64,000 bases of DNA from Candidatus Bathyarchaeota archaeon. GTDB taxonomy: Archaea; Thermoproteota; Bathyarchaeia; Bathyarchaeales; Bathycorpusculaceae. Below, one piece after another: positions 7,309 through 43,037 of the stretch (within the stretch, counting starts at the first letter, position 1; each line of letters starts with the position of its first letter). Made by a program: the position numbers and the translations under genes. Location of the stretch: positions 57,385 to 121,384 of the forward strand of contig CAWAKC010000005.1 of NCBI GenBank assembly GCA_963782525.1. Reading direction: 5' to 3'. The notes below the pieces were generated by a model that had not been told where the DNA came from, made no database searches, and saw nothing but the letters and a program-made list of their open reading frames with translations.

Positions 7309-7839
7309 TTATTGGCCAGTAGACATGGCCGCTGATAGTGCCTCGGAGCTTTTCTGTAGTTCTTTTGTTATGCTTGAGAGCAGTTTGATGCGGTTTTCGA
7401 GTTTGTGTTTTTGCTGGCTGGTTAAGTTTTTAAATTTTGGGACGACATCGCTGACGACTGCCATCATGAGGTCTCGGTTTTTTTCTTCACTTAAATCTTC
7501 CAGTTCAACATGGTCATCTTCAAACTGCAGAACCAAGTGCCCTGTTGGGTCGATGTGGGCTTGTACGACGTCGCCGACTTGGGCAGGGAGTGCCAGATGG
7601 TTTACGGCGATGGATGGGGCTAAAGGCTGCATAAGCTTAAACAATGAGATGAAGAATTGTGAAACGAGGATTTTTTCTTCGGAGCTAAGTTCGCTGATTT
7701 GTCCGATGTCGTCTGCTGTGCTTTTGAGGGATTCTACGAGTTCTTGGATGGAAACCTGCTTTTTTCTTTCTGCCTGTTTTAGTGTTTGTGAAGCAGAGAG
7801 TTCTGAGGTTTCAGGTTTGATTACGGCTTCTTGAGTCAA
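7309..7839 (-). CDS. Hypothetical protein with coiled-coil termini
   Basis: 176 aa helical/charged ORF; the opposite-strand ORF is its shadow. Confidence 0.65.
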   Translation of the reverse strand: MTQEAVIKPETSELSASQTLKQAERKKQVSIQELVESLKSTADDIGQISELSSEEKILVSQFFISLFKLMQPLAPSIAVNHLALPAQVGDVVQAHIDPTGHLVLQFEDDHVELEDLSEEKNRDLMMAVVSDVVPKFKNLTSQQKHKLENRIKLLSSITKELQKSSEALSAAMSTGQ

Positions 7840-8034
7840 TTTGCATCAAGGGGTAATGGGGTCTTAGTTGAAAAAATGCTTGTGTGTCTCAAAAATCATG
7901 CACAAAACTCAGCTTCCAGCAATTCTGTTCCGCCAACAGTTGATACTGCTTTGCGTGATTGTTTAAAAAAATGATTCCGCTTATCAACTGTTTACACCCG
8001 ATTTAACTCTTTAGTTTAGAAGATGTTTATTGTT

Positions 8035-8192
8035 GATGGAAAAGGTTCGCATGGAAAGGCTGAAATGAATGCATCGGTGAGCTTACCCCCCACTAAGCCC
8101 GGCTTCAACAGCTAATTTGCCGCTGAATCCAACACTCTTCTTTTGCTCACAACTGCTTCCACTCTGCCATATCCATTTGAACCTCTTCCATC
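8035..8192 (-). ncRNA. Candidate structured non-coding RNA (long closing stem, central bubble, terminal hairpin)
   Basis: Nested complementarity across 158 nt; several mismatches on + become G.U pairs on -; no ORF; TATA-like AT tracts upstream. Confidence 0.55.
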
Positions 8193-8509
8193 GATTGTGG
8201 ATATGTGTGTATTTCTTTTATTCTTGTTATATTAAATCGTACGATAACAATATAAAAGCATTGTGAACACGTGTTAAGTAGTGCTGTACACTATTTTGAA
8301 GCGTTAAAAACGCAGATTTTTACTCATTTGATTAACACATCGACAAGTTTTCAATCATGTGTTATTTTTGCAGTTATTTGTGTAACGTTATTGTTTGGTT
8401 TTGGGTTTATTTTATGTTGAAGTTAATGTGGATTTTGTATATGGAGTAGTACTCAATAATACTTATTTATTCAGTCCAAGCACTTAAACGCCTAAGAGGA
8501 GGCGCCAAA

Positions 8510-9535
8510 ATGAGCTACGGACACCAAGGTCTAAAAGAAAAAGAAGCCGCCAGCAGAATCCAAGAGGTATCCTCGCTCAAACAAGACAAATTCAAAGTCA
8601 CCGTCTCCCTCGACAAAGAACGCCCCATGTCCACCTCACCCCTCTACAACAAATACAACATACAACGCTTCGACCTTCACCCAAACTTCAACTTCGGTCA
8701 CCTAGACAGCATGATACCCAAGGGCACACCCGAATACCTCGACCACGGATTAAACTATGTCGAACGCATCGTCCGAGCGCTTTATTATTTTAAACAGTGC
8801 AGTTTGATTGGTCCTTCGGGCACGGGTAAAACCCACATCGTCTACCTCGTCGCCGAATTAACCGGGTTGCCAATTTGGGAAGTCAACTGCGGATTATCCA
8901 CCTCGTCCTTCGACTTAATCGGTCGATTCATCGGCTTAGGCAAAGAAAACTGGGTCGACGGCTTGTTAACGCAGTGGCTACGCAAAGGCGGCATAATGTA
9001 CCTTGACGAAGCCAACATGATGAAACAAGACGTTGCCACACGACTCAACCCCGTCCTCGACACAAGAGGACACCTTGTCCTAAACGAAAAAGACAGCGAA
9101 GTCATAGAACGCCACAAATACGGGTACATGATAATCAGCATGAACCCCGCCACCGCCGAATTCTCAGGCACCAAACCCCTCAACGCAGCCATGAGACGAC
9201 GCATGGCCGTCTGGATCAACTTTGACTTCCTCAGTGTAGGCGAAAAAATCTCACCCGACGAAGTAGAAATGCTCCGAAAAAGAACAAAAATCGACCAAGA
9301 TACCGCTTATAAGATTATTCAGGCAGGCGCCGAGTTGCGAAGACAATACAAAGCCGGCGACTTGCCTTATGGTCCTTCGTTAGGAGACCTCATCAACTGG
9401 GCAACATTGGTTAAAGATGGAAACACACCGATGGATGCCGCCGAAGAAACCCTTATCGGATTAACCAGCGACAACATCGAAGTCCAATCAGATGTACGGA
9501 GAATTCTCGAAGCTGTCTTCAACAAATCGCAATAA
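8510..9535 (+). CDS. MoxR-type AAA+ ATPase (CbbQ/NirQ/NorQ-like)
   Basis: Walker A GPSGTGKT, Walker B YLDEAN, SMNP sensor, LNAAMRRR; SD GAGGAGG upstream. Confidence 0.9.
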   Translation: MSYGHQGLKEKEAASRIQEVSSLKQDKFKVTVSLDKERPMSTSPLYNKYNIQRFDLHPNFNFGHLDSMIPKGTPEYLDHGLNYVERIVRALYYFKQCSLIGPSGTGKTHIVYLVAELTGLPIWEVNCGLSTSSFDLIGRFIGLGKENWVDGLLTQWLRKGGIMYLDEANMMKQDVATRLNPVLDTRGHLVLNEKDSEVIERHKYGYMIISMNPATAEFSGTKPLNAAMRRRMAVWINFDFLSVGEKISPDEVEMLRKRTKIDQDTAYKIIQAGAELRRQYKAGDLPYGPSLGDLINWATLVKDGNTPMDAAEETLIGLTSDNIEVQSDVRRILEAVFNKSQ

Positions 9536-9549
9536 GGGAGCAAATTGCT

Positions 9550-11262
9550 TTGGGGTTTATTGATTATGCTTGGGCGGTTTCTCTACAGAAAGATGAAACC
9601 AAAGTCAAGATACTCCAAGATCCTGCCTTAACGCAGCCTCTATTGCAGCAAGACAACTTTGGATTCACAATCAGGTTTCCAACCGTTCGCATGCTGGAAA
9701 ACGGCGGTATTTCTTTTCTCGGCCACAAATTCCCCGGAAATGCCACAGGAAAAGCAAAGATTGGACGATTGTTTAGAGCTTCTGTTATGCACCTGACAAC
9801 TCACACGTTGGCGCCGTTTTCAAAAGAAAAAATCGTTCCCCACGAAAAAGACTCAATCGTGGAAGCCTATGCCAAAGCATTAATCAATGATACCTATGTT
9901 AACGCGTACATCCAAAACTGGTACCCTGATAGGATAGTTGACCTAGCCTACGCAAACGCTTTAGCTTACCAAAAAATAAAGTCCTCCAATAGAATTTTTA
10001 CAACTTCCACAAAACTCATGGCCGCACTATTGACCAAACTTAACGTTGGATTAATTAAGAATTCTCCAGGCTTAAATGAAGAACAAACTGTTGACTTGTT
10101 GTATAACGATCTGAAGACACTCAAAGAAACTTTCATAGTTGCTATGCCTGATGAAAAAAGCAATTTTGACGGATTATTCGATGAAAAATTAAACTTTATA
10201 ACCGATTTACTTGAGCCGTATGGGCCATTTTTGGAAGCACCTTCTTTTAGGCATACTGAGAGCATTGGGCGTTGCAGCGTTTACAGTGAAGTTGAAACAT
10301 CAGGCGAGGGATTTGAAGGTTTGTTTAGGCAATCGATGAATTCTTTAAGCGGCACGTATCCAACAGAAAACATGGAAGAGTGTTGGCGACCTGAACAAGA
10401 AGCAGAAGCGCAACAAGCATTCAACTCTGATCAATACCAAAAACAAAGAGAAGAAAAAATAATCACAAAAATAACGCCATATATCGCCTTAACCAGCTTC
10501 AAATCAGTTTCAATTCCAGAAGAAGATTATACACAATATCTTAGGGCAAGGAATTTGGCGCAGGGCGCAAGCCGCCGTCTACTCGATATTTTGCGGTCAG
10601 CATTCAACTATCTTGATGAAGATCCCCGCCAAGAGATGGGACAACTGGATTTGTCTGCTGTCATCCAATCTTTAGCCAGCAATAAACCTGCAACAGACGT
10701 GTTTGTCCTTGATGAGTACCTTAAGCCAAGTTTTGCTTGGTCAATAATTTTTGATGTTAGCAGTAGCATGCAGGTGAAAGGTGAGTATGGCAGAGCGTTG
10801 GCGATTGCGGTGGCGGAGGCAGCAAAAGAGTTGATGACAGATCCAACCTCTTGGACGTTTTTTGCTTTCAGCGACAGATTCTATGTATTAAAGGATAGCA
10901 ATGAATCCTATTCGAAGAGGGTTAGGGCAAGGATTGGAGGATTAAAATTTGATGGACTCACCTACATCCCAGACGCTATTACGATGGCTGGTAAAATGCT
11001 GGCTAAACGATTCGAGGAACAACGCTGTTTAATCGTTATTTCGGATGGTTGGCCATACGGTTATCCTGACATGCCTGAAGCGTTGAAGAAGGTTGTGGAA
11101 GATTTGATAAGAAAAAACGTTCTGGTTCTCGGCGTCGGCGTCGAAACAGACAGGATGAATAAATTCTTCCATTTGCATGCTTCAGTTTTCTCTCAGAAAG
11201 ATTTGATTAAAAAATTCGGCAACGTGTACTCTGAGGCTTCAGCAAAAGCGCTGGAAACATAA
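9550..11262 (+). CDS. VWA-domain protein (NorD/CbbO-like partner of the MoxR ATPase)
   Basis: C-terminal MIDAS DVSSSM...GLTYIP...ISDGWP; GQLDL motif; 14 nt after the AAA gene. Confidence 0.85.
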   Translation: MGFIDYAWAVSLQKDETKVKILQDPALTQPLLQQDNFGFTIRFPTVRMLENGGISFLGHKFPGNATGKAKIGRLFRASVMHLTTHTLAPFSKEKIVPHEKDSIVEAYAKALINDTYVNAYIQNWYPDRIVDLAYANALAYQKIKSSNRIFTTSTKLMAALLTKLNVGLIKNSPGLNEEQTVDLLYNDLKTLKETFIVAMPDEKSNFDGLFDEKLNFITDLLEPYGPFLEAPSFRHTESIGRCSVYSEVETSGEGFEGLFRQSMNSLSGTYPTENMEECWRPEQEAEAQQAFNSDQYQKQREEKIITKITPYIALTSFKSVSIPEEDYTQYLRARNLAQGASRRLLDILRSAFNYLDEDPRQEMGQLDLSAVIQSLASNKPATDVFVLDEYLKPSFAWSIIFDVSSSMQVKGEYGRALAIAVAEAAKELMTDPTSWTFFAFSDRFYVLKDSNESYSKRVRARIGGLKFDGLTYIPDAITMAGKMLAKRFEEQRCLIVISDGWPYGYPDMPEALKKVVEDLIRKNVLVLGVGVETDRMNKFFHLHASVFSQKDLIKKFGNVYSEASAKALET

Positions 11263-11359: not shown

Positions 11360-11920
11360 TTAAATTGTATTCAGAGCTTTTCTAATTAATTGGTCAGCAA
11401 GTTTTTCCCTATTAGAGAAAGTTACGTTAAATATCTCTGCGTCAACTCTCCGCTTCACCTGTGTTACTATCGGGTCTTTGGCTTTTCCATGCACAACCGC
11501 CACTACCAGCTTTTTGCTCTCCAACGCCTTTGCTACGGCTTGCTTGAATTTTTGCGAGTAAAGTTCCATAGGGCCAATTTCGTCGATGGCGATGACGCCG
11601 CATTTTTCAACGGCTTGCGTGATGGCTGCGGTCCCGAAGTAATCGAGGTCGTTGAGGTTAACATGGTACTTTCCTACCTGTGGACCAAGCCCATTTACGT
11701 GAGCCAGCCACCCATGTTTGCTGTTGGTTAAATCCACAATTTCAAAGCCCACCCGTACCTTGTTTTCGCGTACTTCGCGGCTAATCATGCCACCGACACT
11801 CGCACCCTTCGCTTTTAAGGCATCCACCGTTTTAGTAAGCACCGTGGTTTTTCCAACTCCCGGTGCTCCCGTTAAAATTAAAACCCTCGTCGTTGCCATC
11901 TTTTTCATCAACCATACCAT
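11360..11920 (-). CDS. Nucleoside-triphosphatase (THEP1/NTPase_1 family)
   Basis: LTGAPGVGKTT, RVGF, VGKYHV, IDEIGPMEL. Confidence 0.92.
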   Translation of the reverse strand: MVWLMKKMATTRVLILTGAPGVGKTTVLTKTVDALKAKGASVGGMISREVRENKVRVGFEIVDLTNSKHGWLAHVNGLGPQVGKYHVNLNDLDYFGTAAITQAVEKCGVIAIDEIGPMELYSQKFKQAVAKALESKKLVVAVVHGKAKDPIVTQVKRRVDAEIFNVTFSNREKLADQLIRKALNTI

Positions 11921-11975
11921 AAGTCTATTATGCCGATTAAATTCTTTTCATACAAATACCTCTGGAGCAGACCCA

Positions 11976-13196
11976 ATGGCAGATAAAGAAGGCTACGTTG
12001 CTGATTTTCCGAGCGAAATAATCAAGGAAGGCAAAGTCCAGGTCTTAGTTCCAAAACTGGCGGCGTACGGCGTAGTGCCATCGGATTATGCGCCTTCTAA
12101 AGCTCCAGTCTTCTACAACCCCGTCATGGAGTTCAACCGTGACCTGACCGTTTTAGCGTTCAAAGCATACCAGCACACAGTAAGCCATGAAATTAGCATC
12201 TGCGAACCCTTTACAAGCCAAGGCATTCGCGGAATCCGTTTTGCAGCTGAAGTTGAGGGAGTAACGCGGGTGTTGCTAAGCGACATCAACGCTTCCGCCT
12301 TCGAGTTGGCAAAACACAACATTCAATTAAACAATGTTCAAAACAAAATCACAATTGAAAACAAAGATGCCAACTGCGTCTTAAGCTGCAATGCCTCACC
12401 CAAAAAACGCTTCGACATAGTAGACATCGACCCCTTCGGCACCCCCGTGCCCTACTTGGATTCAGCCGTTCGCGCATTAAAGAACAAGGGATTGATGTCG
12501 GCTACTGCCACAGATTTAGCGCCACTCTGCGGGGTTCATGCGAAGGCATGTGTGCGAAAATACGGGGGTAGGCCGTTGCGAACGGAGTATTGTCATGAGT
12601 TGGCAGTTAGGCTTTTAGCTGGCTACATGGGCTCAACAGCAGCGAAACAAGATATCGGAGTTCGCATTCTCTTTAGCCACAGCAGCAACCACTACATCCG
12701 CGTCTACGCTCAGATCGGCTATGGCTGCCAAAAAGCTGACGAAAGCCTCAAACAAATCGGCTACATCCTGCATTGCTTTAATTGTATGCATCGCGAAGCA
12801 GCAATCAAGATTTTTGGAAAGAGTGATGAATGCCCTGAGTGCGGCAGCAAAATGGATTATTCAGGACCCTTGTGGATAGGAGCTATTTCTGACCTATCTT
12901 TCATTGAACAAATCCAAAAGGAAAACCAGAATACAGCATTCAAAAACAGCGCAAAAATAACCAAAATCCTGAACCTAACAAAAAACGAAGCCATCGCACC
13001 CGCTACCTATTACGTGATTGACAAATTAAGCGGGAAACTCAACTTGCCCGCGCCTTCCAACGAAAGCTTCTTATCGGCTCTCCAACGCAACGGTTTCCAA
13101 GCCGTGCCCGTCCATTTTAACCCTCGCGGCATAAAAACTGATGCCCCAGCATTAACCATGCACAAACTGCTCAGAGAAATTCTGGCAACCAGATAG
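11976..13196 (+). CDS. trm1: tRNA (guanine26-N2)-dimethyltransferase
   Basis: VFYNPVMEFNRD, GIRGIR, DIDPFGTP, TATD, Zn ribbon CxxC..CxxC, GPLWIG; start moved to ATG 11976. Confidence 0.95.
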   Translation: MADKEGYVADFPSEIIKEGKVQVLVPKLAAYGVVPSDYAPSKAPVFYNPVMEFNRDLTVLAFKAYQHTVSHEISICEPFTSQGIRGIRFAAEVEGVTRVLLSDINASAFELAKHNIQLNNVQNKITIENKDANCVLSCNASPKKRFDIVDIDPFGTPVPYLDSAVRALKNKGLMSATATDLAPLCGVHAKACVRKYGGRPLRTEYCHELAVRLLAGYMGSTAAKQDIGVRILFSHSSNHYIRVYAQIGYGCQKADESLKQIGYILHCFNCMHREAAIKIFGKSDECPECGSKMDYSGPLWIGAISDLSFIEQIQKENQNTAFKNSAKITKILNLTKNEAIAPATYYVIDKLSGKLNLPAPSNESFLSALQRNGFQAVPVHFNPRGIKTDAPALTMHKLLREILATR

Positions 13197-42959: not shown

Positions 42960-43037
42960 TGGTGGACCGGGCGGGATTTGAACCCGCGGCTTCCGCGTTG
43001 CGAACGCGGCGATCATACCGAACTGATCTACCGGCCC
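42960..43037 (-). tRNA. tRNA-Ala(CGC), intronless, CCA encoded
   Basis: GGGCCGG...CCGCG-TT-CGC-AA-CGCGG...GGTTCAAATCC...CCGGTCC-A-CCA; G3.U70 Ala identity pair. Confidence 0.97.

Follow-up and report, generated by a model that had tools for sequence, protein, structure and literature searches.

Introduction

Here we examine a rod-shaped element of 158 nucleotides (nt), hereafter the rod, that lies at positions 8035-8192 of the minus strand in a 64,000-nt stretch of a Candidatus Bathyarchaeota archaeon genome (assembly GCA_963782525.1, contig CAWAKC010000005.1; the whole stretch is referred to as the window), and compare it with the described systems that it most resembles. The first of these is a protein-coding gene, cheD (PF03975), with which the rod aligns base for base from the (V)EEV to the EPLPS codons, at a che-operon site; unlike cheD, the rod has stops in all sense frames, and selection appears to act on its base pairing rather than on codons. 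Functional RNA modules that share same-strand sequence with a coding region, as the rod does, have been reported for IS1341-type tnpB genes in archaea, where sense-overlapping non-coding RNAs lie at the 3' end of the gene (PMC4615843). The tnpB RNAs serve the adjacent encoded protein and travel with a mobile element, whereas the rod outlives its gene, is single-copy and is not mobile. Bacterial 6S RNA (RF00013) is alike in size (~160-185 nt) and in forming a rod of imperfect helices, but the rod has neither a match to its model nor a conserved central bubble, and to our knowledge archaea possess no sigma-70 holoenzyme.

Other likenesses concern DNA repeats and operon structure. The intra-operon stabilising hairpins and repetitive extragenic palindromic (REP)-type elements of bacterial operons are short and intergenic. 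Like them, the rod forms a stable stem-loop in a polycistronic mRNA after a gene for which stronger expression may be needed (cheY); unlike them, it is 180 nt long, overlaps the catalytic core of an enzyme, constrains both codons and amino acids, and survives loss of the operon. Miniature inverted-repeat transposable elements (MITEs) share with it terminal inverted repeats (here a 14-bp terminal helix) and a hairpin-like fold, but the rod is present as one copy per genome, or three at most when cheD is counted, at a few fixed, syntenic former che loci. In place of target-site duplications, which were not searched for formally, its flanks continue the homology to cheD. In mammals, the non-coding RNA gene Xist arose from a dead protein gene, Lnx3. 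Like Xist, the rod is built from the debris of a coding gene together with its promoter, although Xist is a eukaryotic long non-coding RNA of a very different scale. A literature search of listings and abstracts returned no description of the rod, no prokaryotic RNA gene born from a dead protein gene, and no described regulatory RNA for Bathyarchaeia. The repeated survival of its hairpin fold after loss of the other parts of the chemotaxis operon suggests that the rod is an undescribed structured RNA.

The original prediction, made from the letters of the window, had proposed a new archaeal RNA read from the minus strand, loosely recalling 6S RNA and possibly co-regulated with the neighbouring MoxR/VWA genes. 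The structured element that it described has stood and shows covariation, and an RNA from the minus strand is graded here as most likely, while the 6S and MoxR/VWA parts are not supported. It missed the origin of the rod in cheD, which is the most informative fact about it. We are highly confident that the rod is a cheD-derived element whose fold is under selection.

Results

The rod descends from an internal segment of cheD

The rod descends from a ~180-nt stretch in the interior of cheD, where the GSC...GGLAH catalytic core is encoded, and no longer codes for protein. Searches of related genomes by blastn recovered a 95% identical twin (genome G010), a 74% identical full-length copy (G023) and a partial match in G035, which falls within the intact cheD of a cheY-cheD-cheC-cheR-cheA-x114-cheW-cheB-MCP operon. 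The homology spans the entire rod, from the (V)EEV codons, through the codons of the GSC and GGLAH motifs, to the EPLPS codons, and the cheD genes of the genus carry the same two inverted arms, which are 11-14-bp inverted repeats conserved across the genus. Less diverged stand-alone copies of the rod also give tblastn matches to CheD. Within cheD the rod segment begins after an N-terminal extension of ~58 residues; its first codon is GTG, TTG, CTG, ATG or TTA and is therefore not the cheD start codon. The extension is itself conserved and overlaps the end of cheY (locus L004, 1072-1722 of the minus strand, and other cheD loci).

What survives at the rod locus of the window is the che promoter, a short piece of leader and the rod itself; cheY has been lost, as has everything that followed the rod. 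The assignment of positions 8035..8192 of the minus strand to a non-coding derivative of cheD rests on the fold, the homology to cheD and stops in all three sense frames, and comparison of the flanks shows that the 18 nt before the rod (8193..8210, minus strand) are left over from a leader and are homologous to the final codons of the N-terminal extension of cheD. Although the window rod and the G023 copy are 74% identical, their downstream flanks no longer align. Pfam family searches of the host genome (G000; 95.8% complete) did not find CheD (no PF03975 match), CheW or MCP, and an archaellin match fell below the family cut-off. Genome contigs searched for the exact arm pattern gave 23 matches, of which 20 are in Bathyarchaeia and the three outside are, by a rough estimate, about what chance would give; viral contigs held no exact match to the pattern.

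Fold of the window copy

On the minus strand the window rod adopts a single unbranched fold of -68.2 kcal/mol (RNAfold) with a z-score of -6.71, and 0/200 dinucleotide shuffles were equally stable; the plus strand of the same interval is weaker (-49.1 kcal/mol, z -5.16). All of the pairings listed in the original prediction, among them ATGGA/TCCAT and those of the middle stem, are present in the minimum free energy fold. This comprises a 14-bp terminal helix (8192-8179 with 8048-8035), three more stem segments, a GTGAGC/GCTCAC helix bordered by a purine-rich loop and a run of six Gs (G6), and an apical hairpin. By fold and alignment, the 5' arm of the terminal helix (8179..8192) corresponds to the (V)EEV codons of cheD and the 3' arm (8035..8048) to the EPLPS codons. 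The 5' half of the nearly invariant inner helix, GTGAGC in this copy, lies at 8145..8150, and the G6 run followed by the 3' half of that helix at 8077..8091; judged by conservation the latter is the most conserved internal motif, and it descends from the Cys-Gly-Gly-Leu-Ala-His codons of cheD. The apical hairpin (8099..8132) is shorter (by 21 nt at the apex) and better paired than its cheD counterpart (all features on the minus strand). Against the covariance model described below, the window rod scores 98.7 bits. A switch had also been proposed, in which GGGCTTA pairs with TAAGCTC; this can be drawn in the window copy and its 95% twin, but the 5' partner is not retained in the next relatives, so that a conserved switch is not supported.

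The expectation that the element belongs to no known RNA family was borne out in several searches. The whole window contains no Rfam family at gathering score except one tRNA away from the rod, a permissive scan of 7800-8520 gave as its three best matches hits of E 0.41-1 at or beyond the rod edges, ARAGORN found no tRNA at the rod region, and six stand-alone rod loci had no match in Rfam. The tRNA, the sole match in the window, lies at 42963-43037 of the minus strand (64.9 bits). No bulge-helix-bulge was seen on reading the window fold, whose basal loops are 2x2 and 3x2, although no dedicated search was run. Both blastn and the covariance model place the rod at one locus in the 2.87-Mb, 12-contig host genome, and it is thus not a multi-copy MITE. 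A small protein was considered and rejected as a product of the locus: an open reading frame (ORF) begins at an ATG in the 5' arm, but its frame and stops vary among close relatives, and the ATG is there because a G.U pair of the helix was improved to A-U.

The rod inside intact cheD

PF03975 is present in 29 of the 120 genomes of the genus, and a covariance model built from the rod segment matches all 29. At the level of the order, where the model matches 23 of 151 genomes, 16 matches outside the genus were examined, and every one falls within a cheD gene; the arms and the rod fold are confined to four, which belong to sister genera g26 and g33. The cheD segments of genera g1, g26 and g33 (n=31) have a median energy of -74.5 kcal/mol and a median z of -6.2, with 29/31 below -3, compared with a median z of -0.6 and 1/12 below -3 for the segments of other genera and families (n=12). 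In three related genera, the segment of the intact gene already folds as a rod under nucleotide-level constraint.

This constraint is visible in codon usage. Measured over 26 distinct cheD genes from the genus, the entropy of synonymous codons is 0.59 in one arm, 0.39 in the other and 0.93 in the rod interior, compared with 1.40 in the remaining gene. Several four-fold degenerate codons are fixed within the rod (Val GTT in 26/26, Leu CTT in 26/26, Pro CCT in 20/20), and the Gly-Gly pair is encoded as GGG GGG, each codon in 24/26.

Base pairing was counted on a gap-free alignment of 31 intact genes (A5), with the structure taken from the fold of one member. In this alignment 79.6% of cells are paired, compared with 33-45% when partners are slid; the covariation score is 0.167, compared with 0.07-0.08 for slid partners and 0.138 for shuffles (0/500 shuffles as high); and both sides of a pair have changed in 48 cells, compared with 21.9 in shuffles (0/500 as high). 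Some of these compensations alter the CheD protein. A change of GAG to GAA accompanies one of CCT to CTT, replacing Pro by Leu (GC:21, AU:6); in g26, GTT to ATT accompanies CCT to TCT, replacing Val by Ile together with Pro by Ser; and the first arm codon co-varies with a Ser/Gly codon at the opposite end of the rod.

Stand-alone rods in the genus

The covariance model finds the rod in 59 of the 120 genomes of the genus, with at most three loci per genome, cheD included, in a scan whose stricter filters may have missed weak copies. We analysed 31 stand-alone copies, the window copy among them, leaving out two weak matches of ~20 bits (G122, G135). Most of these (27/31) are in genomes without PF03975, and four occur alongside cheD (G109, G118, G014, G130). 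Stops are present in all three sense frames in 24/31. The fold is retained with z below -3 in 27/31 (median -7.0); the weakly folding copies are those of G118 (G118c), G128, G009 and G077, of which the last two are also short.

Retention of the fold was compared with neutral expectation by mutating the nearest cheD rod to the observed divergence, with 60 derivatives for each of 28 copies. For 17/28 copies no derivative (0/60) was as stable as the real copy, and for 25/28 at most 3/60 were, the exceptions being G127, G085 and G118c. Drift therefore does not account for these folds.

An alignment of the stand-alone rods by MAFFT, analysed with RNAalifold, recovered merely the outer helix and small pieces because the rod interior was misaligned; the free rods were therefore aligned via a covariance model from the gap-free cheD alignment, built from intact cheD only, giving a set of 24 free rods and one antisense row. 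On this model 82.7% of cells are paired, compared with 35-43% for slid partners, both sides have changed in 45/63 pairs, compared with a mean of 28.8 in shuffles (0/500 as high) and 10-23 for slid partners, and the covariation score is 0.270, compared with 0.04-0.07 for slid partners. Covariation among homologues, a test of which the original prediction had asked for, is thus present in both cheD rods and free rods relative to shuffle and slide controls, and the margin of the free-rod result and the alignment-free tests point the same way. The outer helix (17 pairs) is paired in 93.8% of cells, and both-side changes occur in 15/18 pairs of the apical helix (helix 8). The inner helix (helix 6) is paired in 86% of cells with almost no variation; the most conserved interior feature is accordingly an invariant GAGCU/AGCUC helix with its adjacent G-run, which does not co-vary. 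Freed rods have diverged in sequence, yet these comparisons show that they kept or improved their fold.

Decay of che operons and repeated retention of the rod

The genomic context of the stand-alone rods illustrates how they arose. In G035 the order OYE-MCP-cheB-cheW-x114-cheA-cheR-cheC-cheD-cheY lies divergent from MoxR; in G083 the order is OYE, rod, MoxR, which is the G035 layout minus the entire operon save the rod. Eleven free rods lie divergent from MoxR, at the che-operon site of G035 and of the sister genera. The original prediction had asked for homologues beside moxR, and this adjacency does recur, but it is best read as shared ancestry, the che operon being divergent from MoxR in relatives, rather than as a functional tie. 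A further 14 free rods form a second group located between an M50-CBS peptidase gene and X190, for which Pfam gave no function, and lie 150-170 nt upstream of X190 on the same strand. In 13/14 genomes of this group a block of ~50 nt, 45-100 nt downstream of the rod (loci L068-L089), is almost invariant, and could be the X190 promoter or leader or part of a longer RNA.

Decay of the che operon is common in the genus, with stops in G139 and fragments in G064, G108 and G116. The rod of G116 is surrounded by recognisable wrecks of cheY, cheD and cheC, and compared with the intact locus of G101 it is 88.8% identical, whereas the flanking cheD remnants are 71% and 70%, cheC 73%, cheY 80% and the live MoxR gene 83% identical. 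In G108, cheD is fused at about codon 135 to an MCP fragment, and intermediates on named contigs of metagenome-assembled genomes have cheD cut shortly after the rod and joined to X190, x114 or ORF176. The homology of old copies stops at the rod edges in lineages with different flanks, and in G023 and G104 MoxR-VWA and ORF176 have been lost too and the rod is kept. Together these loci show what decay of the operon spared, namely the rod and a che-type promoter, and what it removed: cheY, the other parts of cheD, and cheC-cheB-MCP.

In a quick IQ-TREE analysis of the MoxR gene beside the rod (64 rows), stand-alone rods arose several times via repeated loss of the che operon. Seven MoxR genes, from genomes in which the rod at MoxR exists only in stand-alone form, branch among the cheD-bearing ones and require 6 changes, at least 5 of them forced by well-supported branches; for the 11 MoxR genes adjacent to a stand-alone rod, at least 6 changes are needed. 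Forcing the 11 rod-adjacent MoxR genes into one clade is 317.6 log-likelihood units worse (p-AU, from the approximately unbiased (AU) test, of 2.4e-34). The MoxR of G096 is sister to that of cheD-bearing G007, which also holds the nearest cheD rod by sequence, and the MoxR clade of the window groups with cheD-bearing G101. The presence of two che promoter classes before different rod groups was also counted toward repeated origin, as were the intermediates with cheD cut shortly after the rod.

Two of these loci have further peculiarities. G118 contig C10 (L088) carries an intact che operon whose cheY is directly preceded by a MoxR gene without VWA; divergent from that MoxR lies a free rod that folds poorly (z -1.6), and a second cheD is found on another contig, which points to a duplication with one copy decaying. 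In G023 (L095, 4840-5660), the coding sequence of the GNAT acetyltransferase that follows the rod is broken into three overlapping frames and that of the next gene into two, which suggests frameshifts or assembly errors.

Transcription signals

Homology and layout identify positions 8227..8257 of the minus strand as a putative retained che-operon promoter of class 1, with a TATA box (8257-8250), a perfect 10-bp palindrome (8245-8236) and a second TATA-like box (8236-8227). A 41-nt stretch upstream of the window rod shares 83% identity with the sequence that precedes cheY in G035, and the TATA-plus-palindrome layout matches the cheY promoters of cheD-bearing genomes. In the che operons of the genus two promoter classes can be distinguished (cheY upstream regions L036-L065), both retained before free rods: one has a palindromic operator after the TATA box, of the TATCGTAA...TTACGATA type, whereas in the other a GTATT...AATAC palindrome precedes the TATA box. 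The X190 group of rods carries the latter class, as found before cheY in G067, G073, G008, G140, G081 and G098. From their sequence, both palindromes look like regulator binding sites.

Downstream, a T7 run at 7965..7971 (minus strand), 64 nt after the window rod, reads as a candidate archaeal terminator. Runs of at least five Ts (T5+) occur within 110 nt downstream of 12/31 rods overall, and on the upstream side of 1/31. By analogy with the cheY promoters, a transcript of the window copy would start near 8225; running from the retained che promoter (~8225) to the oligo-T at 7971-7965, it would measure roughly 235-260 nt.

Discussion

On balance we favour the statement taken as a whole, namely that the rod is a selected, cheD-derived element which acts as a sense RNA with a regulatory or protein-binding function independent of CheD. 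The rod would be transcribed from the cheD-sense strand as a stable structured molecule. We take the sense RNA to be the selected molecule because of the excess of G.U over A.C mismatches, the location in an mRNA and the sense-oriented promoters. A regulatory or protein-binding RNA of this kind may use its long imperfect duplex to present the invariant GAGCU/AGCUC helix and the G6 loop for recognition, and in cells with cheD the cheY-cheD mRNA would contain the module or be processed to yield it. A stable RNA acting through this motif, by binding to a protein or to another nucleic acid, and still driven from the old che promoter, is favoured since the rod outlives all of its che neighbours, is followed by varied genes and retains an invariant helix and G-run; the trans-acting mechanism, considered alone, is nonetheless a tentative proposal that we hold at somewhat below even chances. 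Slightly firmer, although still a shade short of even, is a broader proposal: that the catalytic core of cheD doubles as an RNA module which is itself the unit of selection, constraining synonymous and even non-synonymous sites in the living gene and outliving it as a free RNA gene, independently in several Bathyarchaeia lineages, still wired to the old chemotaxis regulator through the palindromic operator and serving a function unrelated to CheD.

Several points weigh against this interpretation. All of the genomes analysed are metagenome-assembled. The scan with stricter filters found no rod in 61 of the 120 genomes of the genus, so that the rod is not indispensable. Strand preference is moderate, with a median z of -5.9 for the antisense strand compared with -7.0 for the sense strand, and 3/31 copies fold better antisense. 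Some copies look decayed (G118c, z -1.6; G077, -1.4; G009, -2.2). The covariation test on cheD used the structure of one member and so leans toward structure, and the free-rod alignment was fitted to the structure by the model, which inflates its covariation counts. Complements of the G-run motif in the same genome are at chance level (8 sites with at most two mismatches, compared with 5 for a reversed control). The count of independent origins rests on one neighbour-gene tree in which kin share labels, and the AU test was set up after inspection of that tree. Finally, X190-type rods mostly lack a T-run (T5+ in 2/14); such copies may serve the following gene as 5' leaders, more in keeping with a role in cis.

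Such a cis-acting role is the main alternative, and we regard it as unlikely but serious. The rod would here be an mRNA element for intra-operon control of the processing, stability or polarity of cheY-cheD, and after loss of the operon a 5' leader, 3' stabiliser or read-through barrier for the gene beside the che promoter. Its position inside a polycistronic mRNA immediately after cheY speaks for this, as do the intermediates that retain ORF176-cheY-rod and drop what follows, the X190-type rods lying 150-170 nt before a conserved same-strand gene with a T5+ run between in only 2/14, and the window rod itself, upstream of ORF176 in the same orientation. However, the genes downstream differ between groups of rods (ORF176, GNAT, OYE, X190), without the constant family expected of a riboswitch-like leader, and T5+ runs separate the rod from the next gene in 10/17 non-X190 copies. 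Rods of the window type are without cheY, hence have nothing upstream to stabilise, and the sequence-invariant inner helix and G-run exceed the needs of a generic stabilising hairpin.

Selection might instead act at the level of DNA, on a palindrome that serves as a duplex or cruciform protein site or that is kept symmetric by template switching between the arms. Shuffles of either strand are indeed far less stable than the real sequence, in the three copies noted above the antisense strand gives the better fold, and the arms are 11-14-bp inverted repeats conserved across the genus. Symmetric constraint nevertheless predicts equal numbers of G.U and A.C mismatches on the sense strand, and the observed counts are 212 to 65 in cheD rods (3.3:1), 109 to 48 in free rods (2.3:1) and 9 to 1 in the window copy by fold-back alignment, or 6 to 0 by model-based alignment; the bias that the original prediction had noticed in the window copy is thus real. 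The rods also depart widely from perfect palindromes (50-60 positions match, and loops are numerous), which is evidence against frequent correction of one arm by the other, and the element lies within a transcribed gene and behind sense-oriented promoters. We therefore consider a DNA-level palindrome improbable.

Still less credible, in our judgement, is that the rod is a neutral relic, an undeleted fragment of a cheD pseudogene with an inherited fold and no present use. That the rod is a fragment of cheD is beyond question, and che genes were not found in its host genome; across the genus, che operons have often decayed (G139, G064, G108, G116), some copies are short or poorly folded, and many genomes have lost the rod. 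Yet drift should erase the fold at the observed divergence and 25/28 copies retain it, the changes are compensatory, and the rod of G116 is the best-conserved stretch of a decaying locus. Moreover, in old copies the homology goes no further than the rod edges despite differing flanks. The window copy and that of G023 remain 74% identical next to downstream flanks that cannot be aligned.

A 6S-like mimic of an open promoter, co-regulated with MoxR/VWA, can be set aside with near certainty: the similar size and overall rod shape, the recurrent divergent position beside MoxR and the co-occurrence with it (both in 51 of 120 genomes, compared with 8 having the rod only and 12 MoxR only) are outweighed by the lack of any match to 6S models (at gathering score in the window, and up to E = 10 in 7800-8520), by several small asymmetric loops and a small invariant helix (5-6 bp) with a G-run where a large conserved central bubble would be expected, by an archaeal RNA polymerase that is not known to use sigma-70, and by a co-occurrence that tracks one subclade, with rods lacking MoxR (G023, G104) and MoxR lacking rods.

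If the favoured interpretation is true, the rod represents an undescribed family of structured RNA in Bathyarchaeia, an abundant uncultured archaeal group, and a clear prokaryotic case of a non-coding RNA gene arising inside a protein-coding gene, in which RNA structure overrides protein sequence in the core of an enzyme via compensatory amino-acid changes. Every stage is present among the genomes: an intact gene with an embedded rod, a truncated gene, a decaying operon, and a free rod with a promoter. Such natural intermediates make rod function testable, with genomes that possess cheD, both forms, or the rod alone. They also hold a lesson for annotation: a short piece of a gene that remains once an operon is lost may be an RNA gene that is being maintained.

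Neighbouring genes and further observations

The genes around the window rod are a MoxR-type AAA+ gene divergent from it (8510-9535, plus strand), followed by a VWA gene (9550-11262, plus strand), and ORF176, encoding a Bathyarchaeota-only hypothetical protein (7309..7839, minus strand). Neither rod nor MoxR is present in 49 of the 120 genomes, and the co-occurrence of the two follows one subclade that also shares ORF176. In the 12 genomes having MoxR only, no rod lies within 2 kb upstream of MoxR, where the best score was 11 bits; together with the persistence of the rod without MoxR/VWA in G023 and G104, this leaves the proposed co-regulation unsupported. MoxR contains stops or is split in three genomes (G099:C15:91981-92712, G139:C2:81266-82291 and G123:C6), and the MoxR module is therefore also decaying in places.

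ORF176 occurs in 65/120 genomes of the genus, and in relatives it is consistently found beside MoxR or the che operon; usually it either diverges from MoxR or stands first, ahead of cheY. It has no Pfam family, and its protein clusters are restricted to Bathyarchaeota, with no function given. An ORF176-related domain forms the N-terminus of proteins of 530-620 residues.

Further along the window, the ORF of a THEP1-type NTPase (11360-11920, minus strand) and that of a Trm1 tRNA methyltransferase (11718-13196, plus strand) overlap at their 5' ends by ~200 nt; for Trm1, the listed TTG start probably lies too far upstream.

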